DNA of 20,000 nt from a bacterium (GCA_031551405.1 JAVBNQ010000007.1:53925-73924), one strand, 5' to 3'. Positions 2 through 17,967 are shown, numbered from the stretch's first letter. Translations and numbers: made by a program. The notes: generated from the sequence alone by a model not told the origin.

Positions 2-3000
2 GTAGAGTTTGTTCAGACCGGAATTATTCTAAATAAAACGACATATATTAATGACAACCAGTTATCAGTAAATGTTACTGTTGCTGACGATGCCGCAGTT
101 GGAAATGTAGATGTACGAATAATTAACGATGAGTACAATAACTTGGTTGCCAACAAAGTTTTCAGTATTGTCCCAAGGATTAGAGTTGAAAAAATTAATA
201 ACAATATTTTATATAGAGGGAAAGGTACAGCTTACGGAGATGATGTTATTGTTGAAATTATAGGAAGTAATTTCACGCTTAGTACGAGCTCAAACATTGT
301 TTCAGAATGTAAAGTTGAACTTATTGGCGCAGACAATGAAATTCAGGTTGTCAAAGTTGAAACAAAGAGCTCTGGAAATATTTTTGCTTATATAAAAACA
401 AATCAAACCGCAAAACTTGGCTTTGTAGATATGAAAATTATTTGCAATAGTGATAAACGAGAATTGATTGTTTCCAATGCTTTTGAAGTTGTAGACAAAA
501 TTAAAATCAACAATGTTACTCCATCGAATATAATGCTTCTAAAGAATGCATTTAATATCACAAATTCTGGAGCAGTAGCTACTTATTCTATAAGCGTTAC
601 TCACTTAACTCTTTCCGGAGTTGCGCCAATTTTGCTAGCTGGGAAAACAGTCGATCAGCTGATTTCGGCCATAAATGCTGAAGCTGGATGGACAGCAACT
701 CTTTCTAGCTCTCAAGCAGGAAGGCAGCCGGCTACATATTTAAAAACTGTTGGGACTACTGACGTTGCCAATGGTAAAACAAGCATAGCGAGCTTTACGA
801 AGAATGGTATTTTTGACAATAGTGGTAGTGAAGTTACTTTGAATATCGCAGGAAGTGGTTTCGCAGCCGGGATTAACGATTCAAAACTTTTATTTTCAGG
901 TAATGGCATTTCTATTACTAACACCAATTTTGTAAGTGATAAAGAATTAACTGCAAAAATTACATTTGATCCTGCGTTAATTTTAGCGGGTAAACGAGAC
1001 CTTACAATTACAAATTTAGATAATACTTTTGGAATCGCAGCCGGTATAGTCGAGTTTGTAGAGCCTCTTGAAGTAAGTCAAGTAAGCCCTCAGACTTTGG
1101 CTAGAGGTGCAGTAAAAGCTCCGATTACAATAAAAGGAAAAGGTTTTAGCGATAATTTATTGGTGACGTCAGGTTCCAGTTTGGTTTCTGTTTCAGATTT
1201 TAAATGCATAAGTCGTGACGAAATAAGCTTTAAAGTTACTATTGATCCAACATTTATATCGCCTACAAATATTTTTACTTTGAAAAGCGCGACTGGAGAA
1301 AGTGTTCCTGCATCGATAAATGTTGAGCAATTGCCGGTTATTACGAGCGTTGTACCTAACGAACTCGGACAAGGCGCTTCAACTTGGATTACAATAAGCG
1401 GTTATAAACTCGCGAATATAATAACGCTGAATAATATTTTGTTTAGTCAAAACGACATAAGTATTCTAGATATGAAAGATTTTTCAGATACTGGTTTCAA
1501 GGTGTTAGTGAATGTTTCAAAATCAGCTCAATTGGGAGACAAAACAGTAACTCTTAAAGATTTTGTTATTGGTAAAGAAAATACTAACTCCGGAGTACTG
1601 TCAATTGTTGCCGAGCCAAGTATAGTTTCATTTAATCCAGATACATTATTCTTGGGGAGCGTTGGAGAGATTATATTGAAAGGAAGCGGTTTCGTAAATG
1701 GAACCATACTTAAATTTTCGTCTCCGGATATAAAAGCGACAGGATACCAATTCTTTAATAATACTGAAATGAAAGCAACCTTGAATATAAGCAGCGTTAC
1801 AATTCCTGCATTATACGACGTTGAAATAGTAAATCCGGATAGAAGCAATAATTATTATTCCGGTCTATTTAACGTTGTTGATCCGGAACGTATAATTACT
1901 TCTAGTCCAATAATCACAGGAATAAGCGTAGCTGCTCTTACTCAAGGTGCCACCTACACAGTATTTTTGGAAGGTGAGAATTTCTTAAAAGGAACAAACG
2001 TATCTTTCAGTAATAACGACGGGTTATTTATTAGTAATATTAATGTTTTGGGAAGCAAGGATATAACGTTTGATATTTTTGTTTCGACGACTTCAAAAGT
2101 AGGTAAGCACGACATAAGCGTCATTACTAATAACGGCACTGTAACTGCGACTGGACTCCTCAATATCGTTTCGCCACTAAAACTGGATAGACTCGATCCA
2201 AAAGTCTTGTCAAGGGGAACAAAAAGTAGAGACGTTTGGATTTATGGAGCCGGATTTGATGATACTACCAAGTGTTTGGTGGATGGCGATGGTGTTACAA
2301 TAGAAAACACGTATTATTTAACGGACAAACTTTTACGTATTGTAGTAACTATAAGTGAGAGCGCGGTTTTGGGCACAAGGAAAGTATCGCTTGTCAATGG
2401 CAATGGCTCAAAAGTAGAAGTAGAAGGCGCGATTGATATTATACCAGCGGTGACTGTCACAAGAGTGAGTCCGGATAAAGTTGGAATTGGTTCTTTGTTG
2501 GAAAGAATTGAAATCGAAGGAACTGAATTCAGACCTAATTTGGACGTAAAAATACTTGGCTCCGGGGTTTCAGTCTCAAGCATAGAATTCAGAAGTGATA
2601 CTCAAGTAAACGCGTATATTTCTGTTAGTCAAGATGCTTCAGCGGGTTCACGAGATATTAGAGTTATTAACAAAGATGGAAATGAAGGAATTGGCAAAGG
2701 TGTTCTTACTCTAGAAAGTTTTGTAAAGGTTAATTCGATGGTAAGCGAAGGAGCGAATGTTAATTATTTTACGTTGACACCAGGCACAACACATCAAGAA
2801 ATAATCATTCGTGGTGATGGCTTTAGACTAGCAAATGATTTGGTGACAAAGCCAACTATCAGTTTTTCATTGCCATATTTAAGTATAGAACCAGGTACCA
2901 TGAGATTTATGAATAGTGCAGAATTGAGAGCAACATTGTGGGTGGATACAGGATCTGCTCATGGTGGAGATAAAGTGGACGTCCGAGTCACAAATCCCGA

Positions 3001-6000
3001 TGGAACAACAGGGCTTGGCAAAAATCTTTACATTATTTCTGAGCCTCTAGCATTGAGACAAGTGATCCCAAACATGCTAGGAGCTGGAGCACAAAATGAG
3101 ACGCTATCGATTAATGGACAAGGATTTATTGATGGAATAAAACTGGAGTTTTTTGAAAAAAATCACATTACAATTCATTCGATAAAATATATTAATGCAA
3201 ATCAAATAGAGGCAAAAGTTAGTATCGACGAAGCAATGACAGTAGGGTATGCTACTTTTAGCGTAATAAATCCGGGGAATGTAAAGCTTACAACAAGCAC
3301 ACTATTTAGTATTGAGGAATGCCCGGTGGTTAATCTTGTAACACCTGATCATTATGCTCAAGGCGCTCTCAATCAAAATATAAAGATTGGCGGAAGATTG
3401 TTTGATATAAATAGCACTACAGTCACAATAAGTGGCGGTGTAACCGTTGCTTCTACTACAGTGGAAAGCTCAACGTCTATTATCGTAAATGTAAGCGTTG
3501 ATAAAAGTGCTGCTGTTGGAGCTAAAGATATTATTGTTGAGTCTGGTGGAAAAGTTGGAATTGGTCGAGGAGTGTTTAAGGTCGTTGATGCTCCTACGAT
3601 TTTGGAAGTAATTCCTAATACGATTGCTCAAGGAGCGCAAAATAGAGTTATTGAAATAAAAGGGCGCGGTTTTGTTTCTAAGTCGTCTGTCACTGTCAAT
3701 ATCCCCGGTTTAGTTGTAAATAATGTTGCAATTTACAGTGGAGAGAAAATAAGTTTGACTGTGAGCGTTGACAGTATAACGAGTAGTCCAAATTATTATG
3801 ACATAAATATTGCAAATCCGGATGGAAGTTCTGGGGTAGGTACTAGAGTTTTGCAAATAAAAGAGCCGCCTACGCCGCCGGTCATGATTAGTATTATTCC
3901 TAAAATGATGGCAGCAGGATCAAGCAATCAAAATATAATCATCGAGGGACAGAATTTGCAAGATGGAATCAATATGATCATTTCCGGAGGAGGAGTAACC
4001 GTTTCTACTGTAAATCGTAGTGTAGAGAGTCCGTCGACTAGAGTTTATGCTACAATTTCGATTGATGCCGGAGCTGTTATTGGGAAACGAGATGTTTTAT
4101 TTGTGAATCCAGATGGCGGATTCAAAACATATGCAAAAGAGTTTGAAATTATTACAAATCCGGTCATAGATTCCATGGATCCAAGCGTAGTTATTAAAGA
4201 TACTACTACGGCAAAAACTATAAAAGAGATAAATATTATTGGAAAAGCATTTAGCGAATACAGCATAGTTGAATTTACCGGAGGTGGAATTACAGTTGAT
4301 AGCTTTACATTTGTTGGTGAAGACCACTTGAGGATCGACATTACTGTGGCTACTAATGCTTTATCCGGATATCGTGATGTGATAGTTAATAACCCATACG
4401 GAATGTCAGGTAAAAAAGAAGGTCTCTTTAGAATTTCTGAACCGGTTGTGATTACAAAAATTACTCCAAATCAAGCAAGCCAAGGCGTAATAAATAAAGA
4501 AATACGTATTGAAGGAACGAATTTTATGGAAGGCGCGAGTTTGGATTTCAGCGGTAGTGGAATTACGGTTTCATCGCTTAATGTTGTATCAAGTAGCTTG
4601 ATTTTAGGGCGACTGGATATTGCAGATACAGCAACCACGAGCAAACGTAAAGTTACGATCATTAATAGAACAGGCGCAAGTTCAATGGAATCTGGTACTG
4701 ATATGTTTGAGGTTACGCCAAAACCTTCGATTACAGAGGTTTATCCAAAATCGTTAGAGCAAGGCACAAGCAGCTGGATTACGATAAAAGGTAAAGGTTT
4801 CTATCAAGGAATGTTGGTTCAGCCGATTGTGACAGTTTCTGGCGAGGGAGTTTCTGTAAGTAGCGTACAATATAATGGAGAAGCAGATGTTCAAGCATTC
4901 GTGATTGTATCAAGTGTTGCTGTTAGAGGGATGCGAGATGTTATAGTTCAAAATACGGACTCGAGCTCGACGACTATCCGTGGCGAAGCGATGCTTGAAA
5001 TTATCGAGCTTTTAAATTTAAAAAGTATTAACTTAACAAAAATTCCTCGAGGTGATAAATCTAGACAAATTATTTTGAATGGTGGTGGATTTGAGGAAAA
5101 CGCAAAAATTACTTTCTCGGGAACAGGCATTACAGTTAGCACAGTTTCCTGGAAGAGCAGCAACCAGTTGGTCGCAGTAGTAGACGTTGATATTAATGCT
5201 GAGATTGGATTGAGAAGTGTAACAGTCGAAAATCCAAATACCAAAAAAGTAACGCTAAACAGTGTATTACAAGTTGTTGATCCAATATTTATTGCAACTT
5301 TGGAACCTAGCGAGCTTGGAGTGGGAGTTGCAGACAAAGAAATAAGAATTAAAGGAACAGGTTTTGAACCAAATTCTACAGTTGTAATTTCTGGGGATGG
5401 AATTGTTTACTCGACCGTGAGTTGTTCTGCTACTGAGATTATCTTAAAAGCGTCTGTAACAGTTAATGCGACTTTGGGTTTTAGAAGCATTGAAATTCAA
5501 ACTCCGGAAGGAAACAGAGGAAAACTCGAGAAAGCAATCAATATTATCAATCACATAAATATCACTGAAATTTCTCCAAAATATATTGAAAAAGGATTTA
5601 ATGGAACTGTTTACATTAAAGGTTATAATTTCGACGTTACCAGCGGAATAAAACCTGTCGTTCAAATCTCCGGTGATGGACTAGTTGTGGGCGTAGTTAC
5701 GGCGGTCAGCTCTACAGAGTTGCAAGTACACTTGACAGTTCAAAATACTGCTACTATAGGAACAAGAGATGTTACAATTACAAATGCTGACGGAGCAAAG
5801 GGTTTTGGAAAAGGCGGTATTGAGATCACAGATGCGCTTAGCTTTGCAAGGCTCGAGCCAAATAATCTCGGCAAAGGTGCAAAAAATGAAATTGTTTGTC
5901 TTTATGGAAAAGGCCTTGTCGAAGACACAAAACTGGAGTTTAGCTCGTTAGACGTGGTTGTTTCGTCATTGCAGTACATTAGTAACGATCAATTGAAGCT

Positions 6001-6931
6001 TACGATATCTATACCGGAAGCAGCAGCAACCGGAGCAGTTGACTTACTTATAAAAAATCCAAATAATATAAATGTTCCTATTGTGGGAGCATTTAGTGTT
6101 ACCGACTCTCCAACAATTACAAAAGTTGAACCAAGCGAAATTGCTCAAGGCGCACTTAATCAGGAACTCAAAATAACCGGAACAAATATCAGTGCAAATG
6201 CAACATTTGCAGTTAGCGGCCTTGGAGTAAATATTTCGAGCATGAACATAATTGATTCGCGTACTATGAAGGTATGGGTTAATGTTAAGAAAACGGCTAC
6301 AGTTGGCGATAGAGACGTTGTAATAACGAATACTCTTGCAGCGACGAGCTCTTTTGGTATTGGTAAAGGTTTGTTAAAAATAATTGACGGGCCAAGTATT
6401 GAAACAGTGTCTCCTGAAATCATCGCTCAAGAAGATGTCAATAGAATTATTGAGTTGAAAGGAAAAGGATTCAAACCTGGACTCAAGTTGGAAATTGTAG
6501 ATGCAGTTGGCGTTCACATTTCCAGTTTGAACTATGTAAGTAGCGAGATTTTGCAAATTTTGGTCAATGTTGATAATGATGCTCCGACGAGGGTTTATGA
6601 CATAAAAGTTACGAATTTGGATTCTGGACAAGATACGCGTTTTAATGCTATAAAAGTTGTCCACCCTCCTAGAGTCGTGTCTGTTAATACGCCAATCGTG
6701 CAGAAAGGCGATATTGAAAAAATGATTGAAATTACCGGAAATAATTTTGAAATGGGAGCTGCAGTTTATATTGGAGATATGACGACTAGTACGGTAACGT
6801 ATGTTTCATCTTCAAAATTGATAGTGAAAGTAATTGTTGCACAAAATGCAACCGAAGGCGCAAAAGATATTACTGTAATAAATCCAAACGGCATTGTTGG
6901 AATCGGAAAAAGTTTGATAAAAATAGTGGAA
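2..6931 (+). repeat. Protein-level tandem array of about 23 complete plus 1 partial Ig-like beta-sandwich repeats
   Basis: Counted by eye from recurring P-x-I...QG...G-x-GF...RDV-x-V-x-N-x-DG units. Repeats are divergent at DNA level. Confidence 0.8.
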
Positions 6932-8335
6932 AAAATGCCGATTATCAAAAATGTGACTTTAACATCTAAATCAATTGAGTACGAGAAAATTTCGTCTGCA
7001 ATTAATCCTTTATTAAACGGAGTAAGTTTTTATTATGAATTGGTGCGTTCTGCAAAATCAGTTGAACTTGCAATTTATAGAAGTTCAGAACTTCAGCCGG
7101 GTCAGGAAGTAAAACGAGTCATAAGAAGCAACTTACAAGCAGGTGTATATAACAATATTTATAATGCGGACAAAGTATTTTACTGGGATGGATCGATTGA
7201 GTACAAGAAAAAAGATGATGGAAGTTCTGATTTGAAGAAGGAAAATGGCGATTATAGGTGTGTAATAAGAATTACTTCCGACGAAGGACAGGTTGAAGAA
7301 TGGACGGAAACTATTACAGTTGATGTTGTAAACATTAACGATCAATATGTGGAATATACTTTGATGGGGCAAGAAAATGTAAAAGTTTCTCCTTATAAGT
7401 TGCATTATACATTGTCAAAACCTGCGTATACAAAACTTGAAATTGTAAATAGTTCAGGCACACTTGTTCGAGAGTTTGGCACTGAATTGTCAAGCAAAGG
7501 TGAGAATGTGAAGATATGGGATGGAAGAGATCTTAATGGTGTAAGGCTTTCAAAGGGTATTTATAAAGTTATTCTATCAGCATACGATACATCAAATCCT
7601 GTTGATGAAGCTAATATAAAGAATATCGCAATCTCTGTGGATCAATTAGTAGTAGCCGATGTAAAAATAGATTCTATCCGAGCAGACAAACCTGAAACCA
7701 CAATAAGTTTTGTTCCATCAGAAACCATGAGAGTAGATTTGGTGATCTACAAACCAAAAACAATGCTTGGAACAGCAACAAATGGATCAGGCACTGTTGT
7801 GCCAAGCCCATCTGGAACAGAAGTTAAGGTCTTCAACTTGTATGTTGAGAAGGGAACAACTTATCAAGTTACGTGGGGCGGGAAAAATGATAGGGGAGAT
7901 ATGCTTGTTGACGGTGATTATCCATTTGCAATTACGGGTAAAGACAGCCATGGTATCGTTATGGGGCAGCCTTACATTAGCGTTATAGCGATTAATAGAG
8001 CAGCTAATTTGGAAATGAGACGTGAGATGTTCAAGAAAAATTCGTATGCATATCCTAACCCGGTTGATTTCAAAAAAGTCAAAGTTGCAAAAATCAATTA
8101 TGGCATTAACAATATGTCGAATCTGAATTTGTATATTTATGATGTTTTGGGTAATATTGTCTGGGAAAAGCGGTTGGATAATGTGGATATAGGAGAGGGA
8201 CAAATAAATTGGGCTCTCATAAATAATGGCGGAAAAGAAGTTGGTCGTGGATTGTATGTTTATGTCCTGGAAGCAGAAGAAATAAATACCGGTAAAAAAT
8301 TAAAAACTACAAATAAAATAATGGTGATAAAATAA
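2..8335 (+). CDS. Giant Ig-like (IPT/TIG-type) repeat surface protein / putative adhesin with FlgD-Ig-like modules and T9SS-type C-terminal sorting domain; 5' end lies outside the window
   Basis: Frame is open from base 2 (VEFVQTGIILNKTTYINDNQLSVNVTVADDAAVGNVDVRIIN...), so the track start at 143 is internal; at least 2777 aa. About 93-100 aa repeats with consensus P-x-I-x2-V-x-P-x2-L-x-QG...I-x-G-x-GF...SG-x-G-I-x-V...A-x2-G-x-RDV-x-V-x-N-x-DG. C-terminus has three WDG/WGG...G-x-Y modules, then AYPNP...YIYDVLG...W...G-x-Y...KIMVIK. Confidence 0.9.
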   Translation, partial: VEFVQTGIILNKTTYINDNQLSVNVTVADDAAVGNVDVRIINDEYNNLVANKVFSIVPRIRVEKINNNILYRGKGTAYGDDVIVEIIGSNFTLSTSSNIVSECKVELIGADNEIQVVKVETKSSGNIFAYIKTNQTAKLGFVDMKIICNSDKRELIVSNAFEVVDKIKINNVTPSNIMLLKNAFNITNSGAVATYSISVTHLTLSGVAPILLAGKTVDQLISAINAEAGWTATLSSSQAGRQPATYLKTVGTTDVANGKTSIASFTKNGIFDNSGSEVTLNIAGSGFAAGINDSKLLFSGNGISITNTNFVSDKELTAKITFDPALILAGKRDLTITNLDNTFGIAAGIVEFVEPLEVSQVSPQTLARGAVKAPITIKGKGFSDNLLVTSGSSLVSVSDFKCISRDEISFKVTIDPTFISPTNIFTLKSATGESVPASINVEQLPVITSVVPNELGQGASTWITISGYKLANIITLNNILFSQNDISILDMKDFSDTGFKVLVNVSKSAQLGDKTVTLKDFVIGKENTNSGVLSIVAEPSIVSFNPDTLFLGSVGEIILKGSGFVNGTILKFSSPDIKATGYQFFNNTEMKATLNISSVTIPALYDVEIVNPDRSNNYYSGLFNVVDPERIITSSPIITGISVAALTQGATYTVFLEGENFLKGTNVSFSNNDGLFISNINVLGSKDITFDIFVSTTSKVGKHDISVITNNGTVTATGLLNIVSPLKLDRLDPKVLSRGTKSRDVWIYGAGFDDTTKCLVDGDGVTIENTYYLTDKLLRIVVTISESAVLGTRKVSLVNGNGSKVEVEGAIDIIPAVTVTRVSPDKVGIGSLLERIEIEGTEFRPNLDVKILGSGVSVSSIEFRSDTQVNAYISVSQDASAGSRDIRVINKDGNEGIGKGVLTLESFVKVNSMVSEGANVNYFTLTPGTTHQEIIIRGDGFRLANDLVTKPTISFSLPYLSIEPGTMRFMNSAELRATLWVDTGSAHGGDKVDVRVTNPDGTTGLGKNLYIISEPLALRQVIPNMLGAGAQNETLSINGQGFIDGIKLEFFEKNHITIHSIKYINANQIEAKVSIDEAMTVGYATFSVINPGNVKLTTSTLFSIEECPVVNLVTPDHYAQGALNQNIKIGGRLFDINSTTVTISGGVTVASTTVESSTSIIVNVSVDKSAAVGAKDIIVESGGKVGIGRGVFKVVDAPTILEVIPNTIAQGAQNRVIEIKGRGFVSKSSVTVNIPGLVVNNVAIYSGEKISLTVSVDSITSSPNYYDINIANPDGSSGVGTRVLQIKEPPTPPVMISIIPKMMAAGSSNQNIIIEGQNLQDGINMIISGGGVTVSTVNRSVESPSTRVYATISIDAGAVIGKRDVLFVNPDGGFKTYAKEFEIITNPVIDSMDPSVVIKDTTTAKTIKEINIIGKAFSEYSIVEFTGGGITVDSFTFVGEDHLRIDITVATNALSGYRDVIVNNPYGMSGKKEGLFRISEPVVITKITPNQASQGVINKEIRIEGTNFMEGASLDFSGSGITVSSLNVVSSSLILGRLDIADTATTSKRKVTIINRTGASSMESGTDMFEVTPKPSITEVYPKSLEQGTSSWITIKGKGFYQGMLVQPIVTVSGEGVSVSSVQYNGEADVQAFVIVSSVAVRGMRDVIVQNTDSSSTTIRGEAMLEIIELLNLKSINLTKIPRGDKSRQIILNGGGFEENAKITFSGTGITVSTVSWKSSNQLVAVVDVDINAEIGLRSVTVENPNTKKVTLNSVLQVVDPIFIATLEPSELGVGVADKEIRIKGTGFEPNSTVVISGDGIVYSTVSCSATEIILKASVTVNATLGFRSIEIQTPEGNRGKLEKAINIINHINITEISPKYIEKGFNGTVYIKGYNFDVTSGIKPVVQISGDGLVVGVVTAVSSTELQVHLTVQNTATIGTRDVTITNADGAKGFGKGGIEITDALSFARLEPNNLGKGAKNEIVCLYGKGLVEDTKLEFSSLDVVVSSLQYISNDQLKLTISIPEAAATGAVDLLIKNPNNINVPIVGAFSVTDSPTITKVEPSEIAQGALNQELKITGTNISANATFAVSGLGVNISSMNIIDSRTMKVWVNVKKTATVGDRDVVITNTLAATSSFGIGKGLLKIIDGPSIETVSPEIIAQEDVNRIIELKGKGFKPGLKLEIVDAVGVHISSLNYVSSEILQILVNVDNDAPTRVYDIKVTNLDSGQDTRFNAIKVVHPPRVVSVNTPIVQKGDIEKMIEITGNNFEMGAAVYIGDMTTSTVTYVSSSKLIVKVIVAQNATEGAKDITVINPNGIVGIGKSLIKIVEKMPIIKNVTLTSKSIEYEKISSAINPLLNGVSFYYELVRSAKSVELAIYRSSELQPGQEVKRVIRSNLQAGVYNNIYNADKVFYWDGSIEYKKKDDGSSDLKKENGDYRCVIRITSDEGQVEEWTETITVDVVNINDQYVEYTLMGQENVKVSPYKLHYTLSKPAYTKLEIVNSSGTLVREFGTELSSKGENVKIWDGRDLNGVRLSKGIYKVILSAYDTSNPVDEANIKNIAISVDQLVVADVKIDSIRADKPETTISFVPSETMRVDLVIYKPKTMLGTATNGSGTVVPSPSGTEVKVFNLYVEKGTTYQVTWGGKNDRGDMLVDGDYPFAITGKDSHGIVMGQPYISVIAINRAANLEMRREMFKKNSYAYPNPVDFKKVKVAKINYGINNMSNLNLYIYDVLGNIVWEKRLDNVDIGEGQINWALINNGGKEVGRGLYVYVLEAEEINTGKKLKTTNKIMVIK

Positions 8336-9303
8336 TGACAAAAAAAATTAAATTAACAATCGTTTTACTTTTACTTGTCTTATTTTTAAATGCTACTTTA
8401 TGTGCAAAACAGGCTAGCGGAACAACAGATTTTCAATTTTTGAAATTAGACGTAGGCGCTAGGACTCTCGCGATGGGAGGAGCATTTGCCGGAGTTTCTG
8501 ACGATATCTCTGCAATCCGTTATAATCCGGCGGGATTGCGACAATTGTCAAAAAAGGAAGCTTCTGCGACTCATATGGAATGGATTGGTGATTTGAGAAT
8601 TGAACATGTAGCATTTGCAATGCCATACAGCGTCAACAAAACTATAGGTACAAGTATTTTTTATATGACTACAAAAGACGACCTAATGGGACGTGATGAG
8701 TATGGAAAGCCTACGCATAATTTGAAGTTCGAACAAGTTTACGCAACTATTGGAGGGGCTACGCCTGTCGACCCGATGACGGAAAAGCTTTTAGTTGGTG
8801 GGAACGTTAAATATGTTCAGGAAACACTAGACTACAGTAAAAGTACAGGTCTAGCTTTAGATGCTGGATTATTGTGGAATACTCATGATAATATGAGTTT
8901 TGGCTTAGTGGTGAGAAATCTTGGCATTAGCGACGGTAATTATCCGCTAGAAATAAGATTCGGCGGTAGTTACATTCGTCGTAATTTAGGTTTGAGCGCT
9001 GATTTGTATAAATTTAGAGATACTGACGTAAATTATGCGATTGGAGCAGAATATTTTATCAAAGATATGTTTGTTGTAAGAGCTGGATATAATTCAAGCC
9101 TTGGCTCTCTTGGCGAGTTGAATGAGGATGAAAGTTTATCGTCTTTTTCAGATTATTCGTTTTCCGGCCTTTCTCTTGGATTTGGTATTTTGACAAAACC
9201 GCTTAGTTTTTTAAATAAGCATTCTTTAAAATTTGATTATGCGATTGTTGATTACGGAAGATTAGGATTCACGCATATATTTACTTTATCCACTGAATTT
9301 TAA
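8335..9303 (+). CDS. PorV/PorQ-like (UPF0164, FadL-superfamily) outer-membrane beta-barrel protein
   Basis: Signal peptide; family motif FLKLDVGARTLAMGGAF...DDISAIRYNPAGL; alternating beta-strand pattern; C-terminal Phe (THIFTLSTEF) typical of BAM substrates. Start overlaps the upstream stop (TAATG). Confidence 0.85.
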   Translation: MTKKIKLTIVLLLLVLFLNATLCAKQASGTTDFQFLKLDVGARTLAMGGAFAGVSDDISAIRYNPAGLRQLSKKEASATHMEWIGDLRIEHVAFAMPYSVNKTIGTSIFYMTTKDDLMGRDEYGKPTHNLKFEQVYATIGGATPVDPMTEKLLVGGNVKYVQETLDYSKSTGLALDAGLLWNTHDNMSFGLVVRNLGISDGNYPLEIRFGGSYIRRNLGLSADLYKFRDTDVNYAIGAEYFIKDMFVVRAGYNSSLGSLGELNEDESLSSFSDYSFSGLSLGFGILTKPLSFLNKHSLKFDYAIVDYGRLGFTHIFTLSTEF

Positions 9304-9308
9304 TAGAA

Positions 9309-9461
9309 ATGAAAGACAAAAAAGGGCAAGCTATTGTTGAATATGTGCTTTTGGTTTCGCTTGTAGCTTTAGCATTTGTGTCTACCACAGATTTTTTTAA
9401 CAAAGCTGTTGAGGCGCTTTTCACAAAAATCGGAAATTCTTTCGCTCAGAAAGGTCCGTAA
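9309..9461 (+). CDS. flp: Flp/Fap family pilin (Tad pilus subunit), copy 1, 50 aa
   Basis: Manual translation MKDKKG|QAIVEYVLLVSLVALAFVSTTDFFNKAVEALFTKIGNSFAQKGP*: basic leader, G|xxxxEY prepilin motif, hydrophobic helix. Absent from the ORF track, probably because of its length. Confidence 0.85.
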   Translation: MKDKKGQAIVEYVLLVSLVALAFVSTTDFFNKAVEALFTKIGNSFAQKGP

Positions 9462-9484
9462 ATAAATATCCCAAAATAAGAAAG

Positions 9485-9518
9485 CACTGAGTGACAGTTC
9501 AAATTTAGTCACACTGTG
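9485..9518. promoter_or_regulatory. Imperfect inverted repeat between the two flp genes (possible operator or mRNA hairpin)
   Basis: CACTGAGTGAC (9485-9495) and GTCACACTGTG (9508-9518) pair at 9 of 11 positions around a 12-nt spacer. Confidence 0.35.
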
Positions 9519-9536
9519 AAAAAATAAAAATTTCCT

Positions 9537-9543
9537 GAGGAGG
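9537..9543 (+). promoter_or_regulatory. Strong Shine-Dalgarno sequence for flp copy 2
   Basis: GAGGAGG ending 4 nt before the ATG at 9548. Confidence 0.75.
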
Positions 9544-9547
9544 AAAA

Positions 9548-9703
9548 ATGAAACAAATAATGTTCAGAAAAAAAGGGCAAGGTTTAACAGAGTATATTTT
9601 GATTATTGCGTTGATCGCATTAGCGGCAATCGTATCTATCCAGGTTTTTGGTGAAAAAATAAAGGCAAAATTCACAGCCTTATCAGATACTCTCAGCTCA
9701 TAG
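9548..9703 (+). CDS. flp: Flp/Fap family pilin, copy 2 (likely major pilin), 51 aa
   Basis: Manual translation MKQIMFRKKG|QGLTEYILIIALIALAAIVSIQVFGEKIKAKFTALSDTLSS*: canonical Flp G|xxxxEY motif, hydrophobic helix, strong RBS. Confidence 0.92.
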   Translation: MKQIMFRKKGQGLTEYILIIALIALAAIVSIQVFGEKIKAKFTALSDTLSS

Positions 9704-9704
9704 G

Positions 9705-10124
9705 ATGAAGCAAAAAAAGTCTTTAAAAAATAAAAAAGCGCAAGCTATTCTTGAATTTACATTAGTTTTGATCCCGTTTTTTATTTTATTAATGGGAGCG
9801 ATGCAGCTTTTGCATATAGCTGTGGTGAAATTATTAGTGAATCATGCCGTATTTACTACTGCAAGAGTCGCGTCTGTCACAGATAATAAAGATGAGATCA
9901 CTTCGGCTGCCAAGAATTCGCTTATTTTTAAAGACAAAGAAAATATCACGGTTTATATTGTCGATCAAGCTTCTCAAGATGAAATACACGTAAAGCTTAA
10001 TTATAAAATGGCGTTAATCTTTCCAATAGTAAACAAAATTATACAAGAAGCGAAAGGACTGCAGGATTATAAGTTACTAATTAGTTCTGAATATAGTTTG
10101 CCTAAAGAAAATTTGGTGAACTAA
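9705..10124 (+). CDS. tadE: TadE-like pseudopilin
   Basis: KKA|QAILEFTLVLIPFFILLMG...HAVFTTARVASV matches the TadE N-terminal pattern (xxxxEF, hydrophobic helix, A-x3-AR). Starts 1 nt after the flp2 stop. Confidence 0.85.
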   Translation: MKQKKSLKNKKAQAILEFTLVLIPFFILLMGAMQLLHIAVVKLLVNHAVFTTARVASVTDNKDEITSAAKNSLIFKDKENITVYIVDQASQDEIHVKLNYKMALIFPIVNKIIQEAKGLQDYKLLISSEYSLPKENLVN

Positions 10125-10137
10125 TAGGAGATTTGCC

Positions 10138-10905
10138 TTGGAATCAAAAAAAATTATTATAATTGCAATTTTAGTTGGTCTTTTAGGTATGTTTTTGTCT
10201 TTTTATTACTTACGAAAAAAAGAATCAGCGCTTTTGTATGGAATGCAACTTCAACCGGTTTTGGTTGCGGCTAAAGATATTCCTCCAAAAACGAGATTGA
10301 CGGCAAATCTGATAAAAGTTGAAAAAATCCCAGAAAGATACATGTCTCCAAAAGCTGTGATTGTAAACACCCAAGAAGATATTGAGCGAGTCATAAATAA
10401 AATTAACGTAGTTCCTATAGCTGCCGGACAACAGATAAGTATGACGGAAATTGTTCCTGCGACAGAAGAAACCGGTTTGTCTGTCAATATCCCGCCGAAC
10501 ATGCGGGCAATGATTGTACAAATAAATAATATTGACGTGATCGATTTATTGAAACCAAACGATAAGGTTGATGTGATTACGATATTTTCTGCACAGCATG
10601 CAACAAAAGGAAAAGTGAAAGTCGCTTCGACAATTTTGCAAGATATTCTGGTTCTGGGTGTTTCGAAAGATTTGGGTGAAGTTGAGGAAGATCCGGATAG
10701 TTTTAAAAAGAAGAAAAAAGATGACGATGGAAAAACAAAAACAATGAACATGATGACAGTAAGTTTAGCTTTGGCACCTGAACAAGTTCAAGTTTTGGCC
10801 TTAGCGCAAAATCAAGGCGATATAGTTTTGTCAATTAGATCAAATAATGATAATGAAATGAGGACGAATTTGGTTCCAATAGATTCGACAGTGTTCTTAA
10901 GTTGA
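10138..10905 (+). CDS. cpaB: Flp pilus assembly protein CpaB/RcpC
   Basis: N-terminal TM helix; SAF-like VLVAAKDIPPKTRL; RcpC-like IPPNMRAM...KPNDKVDVI...ILQDILVLGV...TVSLALAPEQVQVLALAQNQGDIVLSIRS. TTG start with AGGAG RBS. Confidence 0.92.
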   Translation: MESKKIIIIAILVGLLGMFLSFYYLRKKESALLYGMQLQPVLVAAKDIPPKTRLTANLIKVEKIPERYMSPKAVIVNTQEDIERVINKINVVPIAAGQQISMTEIVPATEETGLSVNIPPNMRAMIVQINNIDVIDLLKPNDKVDVITIFSAQHATKGKVKVASTILQDILVLGVSKDLGEVEEDPDSFKKKKKDDDGKTKTMNMMTVSLALAPEQVQVLALAQNQGDIVLSIRSNNDNEMRTNLVPIDSTVFLS

Positions 10906-10921
10906 TAAAAGGGGAGACCTA

Positions 10922-11716
10922 ATGAAACGAAAATATTTATTGTTGTTGCCTTCGATTTTTTTGTTTTTTTGTGTACAAATTGCGACTGCCGTTCCACTTG
11001 TAGAGGTGAGCGCTGATATAATCGAAATTAAGCAGAATAAGGAAAACAACCAAGGTGTGACATGGAACGATGCGGTAAAGTTTGAAGAAGGTTTATTGTC
11101 AACGCCATTTGTTAATTACAATCAACCTACAGTACGCGGAGTTGCAATGTCGAATTTCAGGATAGGAAGCGTTGAGAGGGCAGACGCACTTACGGCAACC
11201 CTTCGTATGATGATAAATGATAATGTGGCGAGGATTTTAGCAAATCCAAAGCTCGCTACTGAACCTGACTCACAAGCTACTTTCTTGGTCGGCGGAGAAA
11301 TTCCAGTTCCGGTTGTTTCGCCACAAGGCGTGAGCATAGAATGGAAAACGTATGGAATTAATTTGCAGATTAGGCCTAATATTGTTGGGAAAGATAAAAA
11401 AGAAATTTCAGCAATGATTCAAGTTTCAATTAGCGACTTAGATTACGCAAATTCTGTCAAACTTCAAGGATATGACGTCCCAGCTCTTTTGAATAGAAGC
11501 GCAAACTCGAAAATAACAGTAAATGACGGCGGGACAGTCGTTATTGCAGGTTTAAAACAAACTCGAAAAGAAACGACAGTTCGTAAAGTTCCTATTTTAC
11601 ACAATATTCCGATTTTGGGATGGTTTTTTAAAGGAACTTCAGATAGAGACACAGACACCTCAATGGTAATTTTTGTGACATTTAAAATAGTTGAAAGTAA
11701 TCCAAATTTAAATTAA
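10922..11716 (+). CDS. cpaC: Secretin (RcpA/CpaC-type), secretin core domain only
   Basis: Secretin motifs ARILANPKL...ATFLVGGEIPVP...EWKTYGINLQIRP...GGTVVIAGL...KVPILHNIPILGWFF...MVIFVTFKIV; signal peptide; GGGGAG RBS; Tad gene context. Confidence 0.9.
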   Translation: MKRKYLLLLPSIFLFFCVQIATAVPLVEVSADIIEIKQNKENNQGVTWNDAVKFEEGLLSTPFVNYNQPTVRGVAMSNFRIGSVERADALTATLRMMINDNVARILANPKLATEPDSQATFLVGGEIPVPVVSPQGVSIEWKTYGINLQIRPNIVGKDKKEISAMIQVSISDLDYANSVKLQGYDVPALLNRSANSKITVNDGGTVVIAGLKQTRKETTVRKVPILHNIPILGWFFKGTSDRDTDTSMVIFVTFKIVESNPNLN

Positions 11717-11735
11717 TAAAAGGCTGATTTCAAAG

Positions 11736-13913
11736 ATGAGCATGAGTAAAATAATCGCTATATCTGGTCCAAAAGAAGGCGTTGGAAAAACCTCGTTTTG
11801 TATCAATTTTGCTCTCCAATATGCAATGGAGACTAAAACAAAGGTTGTTATTTTGGATGGCGATACAAAATGCAGAAATGATGTAAGTTATTATCTGAAT
11901 TCCGCAGTTTTTGAAACAGTGCCAAATCTTTGGAATTTAGTTGAAAAAGTAAAGTTGACTGGACTAGACGTTAGCCTTTTTAAGGGAAGAATCCCATTCA
12001 ATGAACAGGGAGTGGGTATCCTAAATATCGCGAAAACTAGCGATGGATTTAAAGAAACGCAAGCCGCGCACCTCATGAAGGTTTTGGCAATATTTGGAGA
12101 GCTTTACACATTTTTTATAGACGTAGAATCCTTGCCGGAAGATTTTTGCCTGCCGATTTATGACCTATCTGACAAAGTTTTTTGGGTAATGGATCCAATG
12201 CCAATTAATCTCAAAAACACTATCGAATATTTTGCGAACCTCAGAAATAAAAATTTTAATATGAGTAAATTCAATATTATTTTGAATAGAAGTACATTGC
12301 CTGAGTCTTTATCTACTAAGCAAATTAATTCGAAACTGGGCGTTTTTAACAAAAGCGTGATAATGGAAATTCCAGAGGAAAAAACTGTATCACAAGCTGT
12401 CGCGCGACGACAAATTATTACAGTTGACAGACCACACACTACTTTTGCGAGAGTAGTTCGTGAGCTTTTGCATATCATGCTTGTCGGAGAAACGGCAAAA
12501 GTAGAGTCTGACAAATCCGTGGATGATAAGGGGAATCTTTGGAAAGATTTGCTTGGTACGGTAGCAGAAGAAAATTCAGCTTTAAATCCCGACGAGATTT
12601 TGCCTCAGACAAAAGAGGATTTGAAGCAAAGCATAAAAAAGAAAGTTCACAAACAACTTATCACAGAACTTAATAACAAAAAAATAGATTTAAATTCAGT
12701 TGACGACGATCCAATGAAACAAGTGAGGTTAAAACAGCTTGTTGAGGAAACTGCTGCCAAAATTTTGAGTAGTTTTGGAGATTTGGGATTCACGAGACAA
12801 GAAAATCACGAGCTAGTTTCTGAAATTATGGATGATTCTCTTGGACTTGGGCCTCTTGAAAAAATTTTGAGAGATAAAACTATTACAGAAATAATGGTAA
12901 ATAAAAAAGATCAAATTTATATAGAACAGAACGGTAAGTTGAAAGTTTCTGATCAAAAATTTAATTCTGACGACCAAGTTGTCCAGGTAATTCGTCGTAT
13001 TATCGCTCCGCTTGGAAGAAGAATAGATGAGAGTGTTCCTCTTGTAGATGCGCGTCTTCAGGATGGCTCGAGAGTAAATGCGATTATTCCTCCTCTTGCG
13101 GTGCAGGGGCCGATGATTACAATTCGTCGTTTTCCTGATAAAGTTTTTGATTATCGCGATTTAATTAATTTTGGAAGTATTAACCAGGATATGGTTGATT
13201 TTTTGCGAGCATGTGTTATTAGCGAGAAGAATATAATTGTCAGTGGTGGTACCGGTAGTGGAAAAACTACCTTGCTAAATATGTTGTCATCGTTTATCCC
13301 GGAAAGCGAAAGAATAGTGACAGTTGAAGACGTAGCAGAACTTAGGTTACAGCAGGAACATTTGGGAAGGCTTGAATCCAGACCGCCAAACATCGAGGGA
13401 AAAGGAGAAATTACGATTCGAGATTTAGTGAAAAATACGCTTCGTATGCGTCCAGATAGAATTGTCGTCGGAGAGTGTCGCGGTGGAGAAGCACTCGATA
13501 TGCTCCAGGCGATGAATACCGGTCACGACGGATCTTTGACTACGATCCACGCGAATTCACCTTATGATATGATAGGAAGACTGGAGGCAATGGTTTTGAT
13601 GTCAGGGGCTGAGCTTCCAGTAAGAGTAATCAGGAGTTATATTGCTTCGGCTGTGAATCTTGTAGTTCAGATTTCAAGACTTCAAGATGGAAGCAGAAAA
13701 GTTGTCGCAATTACCGAAGTTTTGGGATTGAACGAGGAAAATATGAGCATAGAAATGAAAGACATATTCTTGTTCAAGAGGACTGGGATTGATGATACAG
13801 GTAAAGTATTGGGAGATTTCGTTGCCACTGGAGTTGTGCCAAAAGTTTATCCGGAGTTTAAGCTCCGGGGTGTAAATCTTAGTCTGAAAATTTTTGAGAA
13901 TAAGAACGTTTAA
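11736..13913 (+). CDS. cpaF: Fused TadZ/CpaE (MinD/ParA-like) and TadA/CpaF pilus assembly ATPase
   Basis: N-terminal about 250 aa: deviant P-loop GPKEGVGKTS, VILDGD, IILNR, EIPEE...A. C-terminal about 430 aa: GLGPLEKIL.D..ITEIMVN, VDARLQDGSRVN, Walker A GGTGSGKTT, VEDVAEL, LRMRPDRIVVGECRG, NTGHDGSLTTIHAN. One uninterrupted frame. Confidence 0.93.
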   Translation: MSMSKIIAISGPKEGVGKTSFCINFALQYAMETKTKVVILDGDTKCRNDVSYYLNSAVFETVPNLWNLVEKVKLTGLDVSLFKGRIPFNEQGVGILNIAKTSDGFKETQAAHLMKVLAIFGELYTFFIDVESLPEDFCLPIYDLSDKVFWVMDPMPINLKNTIEYFANLRNKNFNMSKFNIILNRSTLPESLSTKQINSKLGVFNKSVIMEIPEEKTVSQAVARRQIITVDRPHTTFARVVRELLHIMLVGETAKVESDKSVDDKGNLWKDLLGTVAEENSALNPDEILPQTKEDLKQSIKKKVHKQLITELNNKKIDLNSVDDDPMKQVRLKQLVEETAAKILSSFGDLGFTRQENHELVSEIMDDSLGLGPLEKILRDKTITEIMVNKKDQIYIEQNGKLKVSDQKFNSDDQVVQVIRRIIAPLGRRIDESVPLVDARLQDGSRVNAIIPPLAVQGPMITIRRFPDKVFDYRDLINFGSINQDMVDFLRACVISEKNIIVSGGTGSGKTTLLNMLSSFIPESERIVTVEDVAELRLQQEHLGRLESRPPNIEGKGEITIRDLVKNTLRMRPDRIVVGECRGGEALDMLQAMNTGHDGSLTTIHANSPYDMIGRLEAMVLMSGAELPVRVIRSYIASAVNLVVQISRLQDGSRKVVAITEVLGLNEENMSIEMKDIFLFKRTGIDDTGKVLGDFVATGVVPKVYPEFKLRGVNLSLKIFENKNV

Positions 13914-13970
13914 GTAATTAACTTGATTTTGCAAAAAATTGAGTAAAAATAAGAAAATTCGGAGGAAAAA

Positions 13971-14264
13971 ATGTCTAAAAGAATCGAATGCATCTGTCTC
14001 TGTTCTGTTGCGAAAATAATGCCAATTATTTATTTAAAACTTGGCTTTTTGATTGCTCTTGGATCTTACATTTACTTGAAAATTGCTAATAGCGCTACAG
14101 CTCCTACGATAGGTTTCTGGGCGTGGATTTTCGCAATTTTGCTTTATACGGCATTATTCTGCGTGATTTTGTCTCTCCTTACTTTTGTTGGTGTTTTGGC
14201 GTACAACTGGCTCAGCAAAAGAATAGGCGGAGTTCAAATCTGTTTGGCAGATGATAAAGAATAA
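13971..14264 (+). CDS. Small two-TM membrane protein, DUF3566-like
   Basis: GGAGG RBS at 13961-13965; two hydrophobic segments; S-x-AK near the N-terminus and YN-x5-IGG-x-x-I near the C-terminus as I recall for DUF3566. Family call is tentative. Confidence 0.6.
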   Translation: MSKRIECICLCSVAKIMPIIYLKLGFLIALGSYIYLKIANSATAPTIGFWAWIFAILLYTALFCVILSLLTFVGVLAYNWLSKRIGGVQICLADDKE

Positions 14265-14268
14265 TTGA

Positions 14269-15642
14269 ATGCTAAAAAAATTTTTGCTTGCGTTAGTTTT
14301 CTTAGGGATTGTATCATTAAATTTATTTAGCGATACAGTTTCGCAAGGTATTGCCGTCTATTCTAATATCGACAAAAAAAATATTGGGATAGACGAGCAA
14401 ATCAATTATAGACTCACGATCGCAGGATCAGGATATTTCCCGGATCCAAAACTTCCTCAGATCAAAGATTTTTCAGTAATAAAAACCCGTCAATTCACAA
14501 GCATAGATTTTTCGAAGGGAAGACCACTTCCGTACACAGTTTTCGAATATATCTTCACTCCTTATCAAAAAGGCAACTTCTTAATACCAAAAATCGCAAT
14601 AGAATATAAGGGATATTTTTATTATAGTGAAGCGTATAATATTTCTGTCGGAGACAAAATACGTAGAATTGAAGACGTTAAAACTCTGTCTTATGTGGAA
14701 ACGCGAAATATCTCCGGCGATTCTGCGCCGATTTTTATTAGATCGAGCATTTCCAGTAGCGACGTTTTTTATAATCAGCAGATAATTTATACTTATACGC
14801 TTTTCACGAGAGTTTCTATAAAAAAATTGCCTGTTATAAAGGTTCCGGAATTTGAAGCTTTTCACATTGAGCCACTTTATTATCGTAGGGAATATGCGAC
14901 GGACATTGGTGGAATGAGATATCGAGCTGTGGAATTTAAGTTTGCGATTTTTCCGTATATGACGGATACTCACTCGCTGAAACCATTAAAAATGTTTTGT
15001 TATAAAGATAATTTTCCTGTCGAGATCGCAAGTTCTGTCGTGCCAGGAAATTCACTCGTTAAGGAAACGCAAAGTTTTCGTGTAAATATCAAGCCTTTGC
15101 CGCTCAAGGATAAACCGTTAAATTTCAGCGGACTAATAGGCGATTTCGAGATCACGCAAGAGGTTGATAAGCAAGAAATTGCTGTAGACGAAGAATTAGT
15201 GTTGACGGTTCGAGTCAAAGGCAGCGGAAATATTAGGTCGATTCCTCACATCAAATGCCCGTTTATGGATAATTTGCGGGAATATAATTCTGATACTTTT
15301 ATGAATTACGACAAAAAAGAATCAAAAATAATTGGAGAAAAATTGTTCAGATTCTTGTTAATTCCGAGGGAAGTTGGAGAAGATACGATTCCGAGTATTG
15401 GATTTTCGTATTTCGATGAAAAAGAGCAGAAATATTTGACAAAATGGACTGAACCAATCAAAATTAAGATTGTGAAAAAGAAAAAAGCTGCTAAATCTGA
15501 CGATAATAATTCAAATCAATCTACTGAAACTCAGAAAAAAGGTTTTAATTTTAAAAATTATTTTTATGCGATTGGCGTTGTTTTAGCGTTAATAATAGTT
15601 TTTTTTGTTTTGAAAGCAAGAAAAAATAAAAATCGTAATTGA
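14269..15642 (+). CDS. batD: BatD-family (oxygen tolerance domain) exported protein with C-terminal membrane anchor
   Basis: Signal peptide; repeated BatD-like beta modules (IDKKNIGIDEQINYRLTI...P...F; VNIKPLP..DKP.NFSGLIGDFEI; V.G.GNI; IP.I.FSYFD); C-terminal TM helix followed by a basic tail. Confidence 0.8.
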   Translation: MLKKFLLALVFLGIVSLNLFSDTVSQGIAVYSNIDKKNIGIDEQINYRLTIAGSGYFPDPKLPQIKDFSVIKTRQFTSIDFSKGRPLPYTVFEYIFTPYQKGNFLIPKIAIEYKGYFYYSEAYNISVGDKIRRIEDVKTLSYVETRNISGDSAPIFIRSSISSSDVFYNQQIIYTYTLFTRVSIKKLPVIKVPEFEAFHIEPLYYRREYATDIGGMRYRAVEFKFAIFPYMTDTHSLKPLKMFCYKDNFPVEIASSVVPGNSLVKETQSFRVNIKPLPLKDKPLNFSGLIGDFEITQEVDKQEIAVDEELVLTVRVKGSGNIRSIPHIKCPFMDNLREYNSDTFMNYDKKESKIIGEKLFRFLLIPREVGEDTIPSIGFSYFDEKEQKYLTKWTEPIKIKIVKKKKAAKSDDNNSNQSTETQKKGFNFKNYFYAIGVVLALIIVFFVLKARKNKNRN

Positions 15643-15938
15643 AAACTTTTTTAAATCCTTAAAAACCCCTCCAAAATCGTTTTTCAAAAACAGAAAATTA
15701 AATGTAATCATAATAATAAATCAGCTTGAATCTGAAACCTAGTTCTATTCAAATCGAAAAAAGATTTTTCGAGATGAAAACTGAGAGAATTTGTTTTTGC
15801 AATTGAAAAAGAGAAGAAAAACTTTTCAATTTCAGTCTCTTTTTACCTTTACGTCTGCCTATCGATGAGAAGATAGAAGATTTTTATAAAAGCATTAAAA
15901 ATTTTCAACGGTTAACGCTGGAACAAATAAAATCTAAA

Positions 15939-17826: not shown

Positions 17827-17855
17827 TTTTTCCCTCGTAAATCAATTTTATTTGG

Positions 17856-17863
17856 ATTATAAT
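17856..17863. promoter_or_regulatory. Palindromic ATTATAAT giving a consensus -10 hexamer on both strands in the divergent thiC/cinA gap
   Basis: TATAAT at 17858-17863 (+) and 17861-17856 (-). No good -35 element seen. Confidence 0.35.
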
Positions 17864-17967
17864 ACACGAAAAAAGGTTTAAAAACCATAAAAATTAATAG
17901 AACACTTGTTTTTGCTTTTTAAATAAGGCAAACTTGTGTCAAAATTTGGTTTAAGCGAGGCATAAAA

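Follow-up and report, generated by a model that had tools for sequence, protein, structure and literature searches.

In a 20,000-nucleotide (nt) stretch of bacterial DNA (GCA_031551405.1, JAVBNQ010000007.1:53925-73924; the whole stretch is hereafter called the window), a gene for a giant repeat protein with a C-terminal domain (CTD) of the kind known from type IX secretion systems (T9SS) is followed by a gene for a PorV/PorQ-family outer-membrane barrel and then by a set of Tad/Flp pilus genes. We favor, with moderate confidence, the view that these genes form an attachment operon of two modules, i.e., a giant fibre anchored by the barrel and a reduced Tad set, which would be transcribed together without constituting one machine. 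Central to this view is that the giant protein and the barrel, judged by comparison of related loci, make up a stable module that is separable from the Tad genes. What appears to be new here is a predicted CTD-barrel anchoring pair outside the Fibrobacteres-Chlorobi-Bacteroidetes (FCB) phyla, in one lineage joined to an atypical Tad set.

The giant surface protein is encoded on the + strand by an open reading frame (ORF; 2..8335) that is open at its 5' end, which lies outside the window, and it comprises >2,777 amino acids (aa). Pfam matches in this protein were TIG, Qn_am_d_aIII, FlgD_ig, and CHU_C, and the NCBIfam model CoaZ_rpt_PGGG scored 391 bits over 17 stretches. With a repeat profile derived from its own sequence, 25 matches were obtained, 1 of them marginal (0.5 bits), with a spacing of 8 to 12 aa and extending up to residue 2297; this region (residues 1-2297; 2..6892) is thus described as approximately 24 TIG/IPT-like repeats in tandem, each about 90 aa long. 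The 480-aa C-terminal part after the repeats contains three FlgD-Ig-like stretches and a final YPNP domain. The former make up a stalk of FlgD-Ig-like beta-sandwich domains (6893..8002), supported by Pfam FlgD_ig (76.4 bits over 3 stretches in the last 450 aa) and a PDB sequence match to FlgD (3c12), and the latter is a 110-aa CTD (8003..8332, with YPNP at 8051-8062) resembling the T9SS type A domains for sorting or anchoring.

This assignment of the tail draws on NCBIfam, Pfam, and a structure model. When the last 120 aa were compared with NCBIfam, the best matches were the C terminus of the PorU model (32.5 bits, model positions 995-1094 of 1095) and that of the PorZ model (32.1 bits, positions 669-757 of 757). 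CHU_C scored 28 to 36 bits against a cut-off of 27, and TIGR04183, with a cut-off of 23, gave 22.8 bits for the 120-aa piece and 23.2 bits for a 450-aa piece; scores of the relatives ranged from 22.8 to 30.7 bits, with 4 of 8 pieces tested above 23 and the remainder at 22.8 to 23.2. Residues Y17, P18, N19, P20, G50, W70, G83, Y85, and K105 of the tail were invariant in 6 sequences, and the YPNP and GxGxY motifs as well as the terminal K were conserved among relatives. In the one confident model out of 5, the tail was a seven-strand sandwich with a predicted local distance difference test (pLDDT) score of 88, and its structural matches included PorU (6za2) and PorZ (5m11) with query-based template modeling scores (TMq) of 0.63 and 0.52, respectively. 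The PorU and PorZ C-terminal matches, with CHU_C just above its cut-off, agree with a preliminary description of this DNA that had called the tail a T9SS CTD of the YPNP type.

The barrel gene (8335..9303, + strand) encodes a 322-aa protein with a signal peptide and 14 strands. The protein passed the NCBIfam model for the PorV/PorQ subfamily, NF033709 (125.7 bits versus a cut-off of 90), as did the barrels of the five closest related loci (102.8 to 180 bits). Neither equivalog model was reached, the PorQ model NF033711 giving 118 bits versus 220 and the PorV model NF033710 giving 32.9 bits versus 250; by these profile scores the barrel is a member of the PorV/PorQ family and an orthologue of neither PorV nor PorQ. 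The family placement behind the earlier term "PorV-like barrel" hence holds, but the protein stands nearer to PorQ (118 bits) than to PorV (33 bits). When a barrel profile built from 26 sequences was compared with the PDB, PorV of Flavobacterium (6h3i_F) was matched with an E value of 9.9e-38, and TodX (1.2e-5) and FadL with 1e-5 or worse. A model of the barrel (pLDDT of 85.9, predicted template modeling score of 0.83) showed 14 long strands by DSSP, and the top two Foldseek matches were the PorV chains 8gl6_F and 6h3i_F (TMq of 0.68 and 0.66), followed by FadL and TodX (0.51 to 0.60). A barrel of the PorP/SprF type, the partner of type B CTDs, was ruled out by a TIGR03519 score of 16.2 against a cut-off of 90.55.

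The preliminary description had also proposed modeling the CTD together with the barrel. The complex of the mature barrel and the 110-aa tail scored 0.88 (0.88, 0.89, and 0.88 in separate runs), compared with 0.00 for the best of 3 controls; of 157 solved complexes, 116 attain the mark applied to this score, as do 2 of 215 mismatched pairs. The runs shared at least 89% of contacts, with partner pLDDT values of at least 89. On the tail, contacts involved residues 15-20 (YAYPNP), 74-84 (the GxGLY region), and 103-109 (the last strand); on the barrel, they involved residues 27-38, an invariant G119-R120-D121 loop, and each alternate inter-strand turn, i.e., one face. The model therefore indicates that the tail probably docks on one face of the barrel, and the usual topology of such proteins suggests that this would be the outer face.

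All ORFs from the giant gene to the ATPase gene lie on the + strand, as seen in the ORF list and in the sequence from 8200 to 10200. The giant ORF ends with a TAA stop (8333-8335) whose last A is also the first base of the barrel ATG (8335-8337), an overlap of 1 nt, and the barrel gene (8335..9303) is followed after 5 nt by flp1, starting at 9309. An 86-nt gap (9462-9547) separates flp1 from flp2 (9548); gaps of 1, 13, 16, and 19 nt then precede tadE (9705), cpaB (10138), the secretin gene (10922), and the ATPase gene (11736..13913), and gaps of 57 and 4 nt precede genes for a small membrane protein, tm97, and a BatD-like protein, respectively. The coordinates, overlap, gaps, and single strand given in the preliminary description were all reproduced. 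The block it had delimited as 2..13913 keeps its genes but not its end, as the conserved order extends to 15642 and takes in tm97 (13971..14264) and the BatD-like gene (14269..15642). In a consensus scan of 7800-16200, 4 terminator-like sites were found versus 5.1 expected from shuffles; both of those on the + strand (13111 and 14715) fall within coding sequence and none was located in an intergenic gap, in line with the earlier remark that there is no clear terminator. A promoter had been thought possible in the 86-nt gap, and the consensus scan gave no sigma-70-like site there. The G+C content across the block was even, at 0.33 to 0.41 per kb, hence giving no hint of recent insertion.

For synteny, a single scan of genome contigs with an alignment of the 10 closest barrels yielded nine loci (L001 to L009), which were annotated by tblastn with the window proteins, ORF calling, Pfam, and NCBIfam. 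The closest barrels (47 to 59% identity) came from Elusimicrobiota, "bacterium," or metagenome sources, and more distant PorV/PorQ-family matches were labeled Zixibacteria, Ignavibacteriales, Margulisbacteria, and Flavobacteriales. Two loci, L003 (JAAEPJ01, an unclassified metagenome-assembled genome [MAG]) and L004 (JBDRED01, Elusimicrobiota), displayed the full order of the window, i.e., the ten genes giant-barrel-flp-flp-tadE-cpaB-secretin-cpaEF-tm~97-batD; flp follows the barrel gene after 2 and 22 nt, respectively, compared to 5 nt in the window, and identities to the window proteins ranged from 39-53% for the barrel up to 59-71% for the ATPase. The join is thus not unique to this genome, a point on which the preliminary description had suggested a search for conserved synteny. 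Past batD, L004 carries unrelated genes, including two ORF6N genes, a HipA_C fragment, and a HIRAN gene (17730-20334), and the ten-gene block is therefore conserved beyond its flank. This stretch of L004 is a patch of mobile-element or defence-like character and marks the end of synteny.

Three other loci contained the giant protein-barrel pair or its like with no Tad genes adjacent. L001 (CAYQVV01, Elusimicrobiaceae) has a CTD protein, the barrel, and then cinA and dus; L002 (JAIRLV01, Elusimicrobiota) has a giant protein, the barrel, murJ, and the contig end; and L005 (DMMW01, Elusimicrobia) has a 1,322-aa CHU_C protein, the barrel, and Fe-S and NADH dehydrogenase genes. A similar pair was present in L007 (10-3520, Leptospiraceae), where a 623-aa protein with FlgD-Ig domains and a type A tail is followed after 10 nt by a 543-aa PorV/PorQ-like barrel of sub-cut-off score (79.6 bits), and the pairing is therefore not confined to Elusimicrobiota. 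Another Leptospiraceae MAG, L009 (5079-6707), showed two weak barrel-like ORFs and no recognisable CTD neighbour; the 543-aa PorV/PorQ-like barrels of L007 and L009 scored 75 to 80 bits, below the cut-off. L008 was ruled out as a family member, its protein being FadL-like. At a contig edge in a Spirochaetia MAG, L006 (82-1896), a 605-aa ORF combines a PorV/PorQ barrel (111.7 bits) with FlgD-Ig and a C-terminal OmpA peptidoglycan-binding domain.

Altogether, 6 of the 9 loci have a CTD-type protein immediately before the barrel, and Tad genes follow the barrel in 2 of the 9 (2 of the 5 of Elusimicrobiota type), in addition to the window, leaving 3 of the 5 related loci (L001, L002, and L005) with the pair and no adjacent Tad genes. 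An overlap of the giant and barrel genes, 1 nt long in the window and 4 nt long in L001 to L004, is present in all five close loci, and from this arrangement the two genes are predicted to be translationally coupled. The persistence of the pair in L001, L002, and L005, and of a similar one in L007, indicates that the barrel belongs to the cargo and not to the pilus. This separability weighs against two other explanations. One of them would make the barrel a pilus accessory, either a stand-in for RcpB/TadD or a FadL-type channel, with no partnership with the giant protein. It could draw on the position of the barrel directly before flp1 and on weak N-terminal matches of the barrel to Toluene_X and to a model termed "pilus system FadL family transporter FilD" (24.9 bits versus a cut-off of 970). 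However, the barrel adjoins Tad genes in only those 2 of 9 loci while following a CTD protein in 6, all 5 of the close loci have its gene overlapping the stop of the giant gene, and its profile matches PorV 32 orders of magnitude better than FadL/TodX, so that we disfavor this role as highly improbable. The other explanation, in which the Tad apparatus exports the fibre, is taken up below with the Tad genes.

A maximum-likelihood tree of 21 barrels, with rows chosen from the first 42 matches and the loci, was rooted at the midpoint. It contained a 12-row clade with support of 100/100, in which L004, a Tad-linked locus, was basal; the window and L003, also Tad linked, grouped with P0002, P0003, and P0005, and L001 and L002, with no adjacent Tad genes, fell together in one sister clade (100/99). 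The midpoint-rooted tree suggests that the Tad junction was ancestral to the barrel clade and was lost once. Directly after the barrel, L001 carries a 163-aa gene for a CinA C-terminal domain (1555-2046), and the cinA of the window encodes a two-domain protein of 432 aa (17968-19266) that lies 8.6 kb on, past the Tad genes, batD, yqeK, and thiC; these positions are consistent with deletion of the Tad-to-thiC stretch in the L001 lineage.

The tree bears on whether the two modules adjoin through descent alone, sharing a transcript with no joint purpose, so that the common order would merely reflect the relatedness of three genomes. In the barrel tree, a single clade contains all Tad-linked loci, yqeK lies downstream in both the window and L003 as background synteny, and the Tad block appears to have been lost beside the pair at least once, with the pair retained. 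Nevertheless, the ten-gene block of L004 is intact despite the unrelated flank past batD, the junction remains tight, with minimal intergenic distance, even at 39% barrel identity, and both modules are plausible adhesion devices, for which co-regulation is the simpler account. We consider descent alone to be an unlikely explanation, though one that deserves to be kept in mind.

The Tad/Flp part begins with two genes for Flp-type prepilins of 50 to 51 aa. flp1 (9309..9461, + strand; KG|QAIVEY) and flp2 (9548..9703, + strand; KG|QGLTEY) were called by their motifs and scored 24.5 and 29.4 bits with Flp_Fap, both below the cut-off of 32.2; flp1 has homologues in L003 and L004, and the cleavage motif G|xxxxEY was kept in 6 of 6 Flp proteins of the window, L003, and L004. 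The second is better conserved, with 67% identity to the L003 copy versus 40% for flp1. Within the gap between the two genes lies a hairpin (9485..9518, + strand) followed by no T run, which we did not call a terminator; the fold of the 96-nt segment 9455-9550 was estimated at -13.8 kcal/mol (z = -2.13), with 8 of 200 shuffles as stable. A GAGGAGG sequence is found upstream of flp2, and no ribosome-binding site is visible for flp1. Because of the hairpin and the GAGGAGG sequence, together with the lower conservation of flp1 and its lack of a visible ribosome-binding site, flp2 may be the major pilin, with a level set separately from that of flp1.

The remaining genes on this strand encode a TadE-like minor pilin (9705..10124; Pfam TadE, 29.4 bits versus a cut-off of 22.9), CpaB/RcpC (10138..10905; TIGR03177, 148.6 bits versus 71, with RcpC [72.4 bits] and SAF domains), and a short secretin of 264 aa (10922..11716; Pfam Secretin, 132.9 bits, residues 98-258), whose copies in L003 and L004 comprise 260 and 258 aa. 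Besides its secretin domain, this protein comprises little other than a signal peptide and a short N-terminal stretch. They are followed by a 725-aa fusion (11736..13913) of a TadZ/CpaE-like P-loop domain (residues 1 to approximately 260, with GPKEGVGKT; CbiA, 45.1 bits) and a TadA/CpaF ATPase (residues approximately 350-660; T2SSE, 214.6 bits). The T2SSE, CbiA, RcpC, TIGR03177, Secretin, and TadE matches were all above their cut-offs, and TIGR03819 scored 326.9 bits on the fusion, below its cut-off of 373. When the N-terminal 340 aa of the fusion were used to search a set of 5.8 billion sequences, 14 proteins were matched, all from Elusimicrobiota, "bacterium," or unlabeled sources; 12 of them are full-length fusions of 695 to 749 aa and 2 are N-terminally truncated. 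The families assigned in the preliminary description (Flp, TadE, CpaB, secretin, and T2SSE) were thus all recovered with Pfam and NCBIfam, Flp at sub-cut-off scores, and the "cpaE/F" it had listed proved to be one fused gene.

Neither the 14 window ORFs nor the downstream ORFs of L003 and L004 gave a match to a T2SSF platform protein (TadB/TadC), and none to a prepilin peptidase (TadV/CpaA, peptidase A24) was found in the window, L003, or L004; the tadB, tadC, and peptidase genes may sit at another place in the genome or in the DNA preceding the giant gene. As a single ATPase is encoded and platform genes are not in view, the term "retractile," applied earlier to the pilus, is not sustained. 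The occurrence of Tad systems in Elusimicrobia is reported by Denise et al. (2019; PMC6668835), who describe Tad as nearly always one locus in which tadB and tadC are systematically present.

Two further genes of the block follow the ATPase gene in the window (13914-15642, + strand), in L003 (15585-17218), and in L004 (15853-17589), encoding a DUF3566-like protein of 94 to 100 aa and a BatD-like protein. In the window, the first is tm97 (13971..14264), a small membrane protein of 97 aa with a DUF3566 score of 22.2 bits, at the cut-off, and 47 to 49% identity to the L003 and L004 copies; a protein atlas matched it to DUF3566 clusters at 0.89 to 0.90. That tm97 is a remnant platform protein was considered and found unsupported, since its matches are DUF3566-like only. 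The BatD-like protein (14269..15642; Pfam BatD, 90.5 bits) has a signal peptide and a C-terminal membrane anchor, is 49 to 52% identical to the L003 and L004 copies, and is encoded by the last gene of the block.

The five closest loci are from Elusimicrobiota or unclassified "bacterium" MAGs, and from these relatives the host of the window would be a member of the poorly known phylum Elusimicrobiota, whose NCBI lineage contains no FCB node. According to Abby et al. (2016; PMC4793230), T9SS was detected in 60 of the 97 genomes of Bacteroidetes, with no occurrence in any other clade, and a further source states, in the part cited here, that T9SS genes are absent outside the FCB phyla (PMC11285876). 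Among the 14 window ORFs, which represent 20 kb of the genome, Pfam and NCBIfam searches found no SprA/Sov, no PorK/L/M/N, and no PorU sortase.

A rival explanation is a hybrid machine, in which the reduced Tad apparatus (secretin, fused ATPase, and short Flp/TadE filament), acting as an assembly platform or in the manner of a type II secretion piston, would carry the giant CTD fibre over the outer membrane in a phylum without the SprA translocon, and the PorQ-like barrel would then capture its tail. Such a machine would fit the ten-gene order found in three genomes, where flp follows the barrel gene after 5, 2, and 22 nt, the placement of flp1 directly after the barrel stop with no ribosome-binding site of its own, the atypical Tad set (short secretin, fused ATPase, and no tadB/tadC in view), and the reported absence of T9SS outside the FCB phyla (stated in parts of PMC11285876 and PMC4793230). 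It would also fit the fused ATPase family, which is as small and taxon restricted as the barrel clade (14 matches versus 10 close barrels). Against it, the cargo-barrel pair persists, with tail and barrel conserved, in L001, L002, and L005 with no adjacent Tad genes; no computed link exists between any Tad protein and the fibre; and completeness of the machine is not arguable with no platform protein in view. A literature search found no Tad system exporting such cargo, and to our knowledge none is known to export cargo of this kind. Taking both sides together, we regard a hybrid machine as improbable.

We therefore return to the attachment operon of two modules. The fibre would be exported over the inner membrane, which we assume because its signal peptide would lie outside the window, and would then cross the outer membrane ahead of tail capture. 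Its uncleaved tail would dock on the outer face of a private PorV/PorQ-family barrel, holding the fibre at the surface, and the same transcript would supply the Tad-type pilus set, so that tether and pilus would be deployed together, presumably for adhesion. The co-regulated attachment apparatus put forward in the preliminary description keeps its dedicated barrel, as supported by the pairing and the complex model, but a single joined system is not supported as proposed, since the modules are separable.

Several points weigh against this explanation. The sample is small and phylogenetically clustered, with 5 loci of Elusimicrobiota type plus the window, and "Tad-less" refers for L001, L002, and L005 to adjacency only. 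For the tail, the 120-aa piece of the window falls 0.2 bits under the TIGR04183 cut-off, Por_Secre_tail (PF18962) gives 19 against a cut-off of 27, and only 1 of 5 models is confident (88 versus 37 to 46.5). The fold matches of the tail are unspecific, in that Fn3-like domains of C5a peptidase match as well as PorU and unrelated Fn3-like domains reach 0.58. The passing score of the complex may echo the solved PorV-CTD complex 8gl6 and so reflect likeness more than binding. In addition, an adjacency kept at 39 to 53% barrel identity with near-zero intergenic space could exceed what co-regulation alone would account for.

CTD cargo and PorV/PorQ barrels are taken as T9SS hallmarks in Bacteroidota and the other FCB phyla. 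If SprA and PorKLMN are truly missing from these genomes, capture of the tail by the barrel would be a free-standing anchoring device, which would bear on the origin of the T9SS attachment complex and on how a fibre of >2,777 aa passes the outer membrane; the conserved join to an atypical Tad set offers one concrete hypothesis for its export. Should the hybrid machine be true, it would represent a secretion route combining type IX components with those of type IV filaments and a hint that CTD-barrel capture predates, and is independent of, the SprA translocon. If, on the other hand, a full T9SS is encoded in the genomes, what remains is an adhesion operon that is unusual but otherwise ordinary. 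The parts themselves are already annotated, as barrels of Elusimicrobiota MAGs appear in databases as "PorV/PorQ family protein." A literature search found neither a published operon of CTD/PorV and Tad genes nor CTD/PorV parts in Elusimicrobiota, in keeping with the earlier remark that no characterised operon joins the two, and the arrangement was not found described in the literature searched.

Downstream of the block, the window contains yqeK, then thiC on the minus strand, and finally cinA; the convergent yqeK and thiC genes overlap by 14 nt at their 3' ends. For the thiC region (16534-17967, minus strand), the 141 nt upstream gave no thiamine pyrophosphate riboswitch at the gathering score in the Rfam scan, and neither tRNA genes nor Rfam families at the gathering score were detected anywhere in the window.

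Among known systems, the closest likeness is to the PorQ-PorZ and PorV-PorU pairs of the Porphyromonas gingivalis T9SS, in which, according to portions of Glew et al. (2017; PMC5562754) and of PMC11285876, a barrel holds a surface protein by its uncleaved CTD; the latter source notes in the portion cited that the CTDs of PorA, PorU, and PorZ stay on. Similarly, the window tail best matches the PorU and PorZ C termini, PorQ is the best equivalog of the barrel, and the complex model passes. The window pair differs in that its phylum lies outside the FCB group, its barrel scores under both equivalog cut-offs, and the protein held is a giant repeat fibre rather than an enzyme or lipopolysaccharide carrier. 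Its genes, moreover, are adjacent and overlapping, with the translocon, sortase, and PorKLMN not in view.

A second likeness is to SprB-SprF and PG1035-PorP, pairs in which a type B CTD protein is anchored by a PorP-like barrel. In Flavobacterium, the sprB and sprF genes adjoin. Shared with the window is the binding of a large adhesin at the surface by a dedicated barrel (PMC9143113), as proposed here. Unlike in those pairs, the window barrel is outside the PorP/SprF family by the TIGR03519 score given above (16.2 versus 90.55), and the window tail is type A-like in its YPNP motif and PorU/PorZ matches, though it touches CHU_C at the cut-off.

The pilus genes in turn resemble the tad locus of Aggregatibacter and the cpa locus of Caulobacter in having Flp proteins with G|xxxxEY, TadE, RcpC/CpaB, a secretin, TadA/CpaF, and a TadZ/CpaE-like domain. 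Unlike in those loci, tadB, tadC, and tadV were not found in the window, L003, or L004, the TadZ and TadA parts are fused, and the secretin is only 264 aa long. In Tad loci, tadB and tadC usually come next after the ATPase gene; by that customary gene order, their place is taken in the window, L003, and L004 by the DUF3566-like and BatD-like genes.

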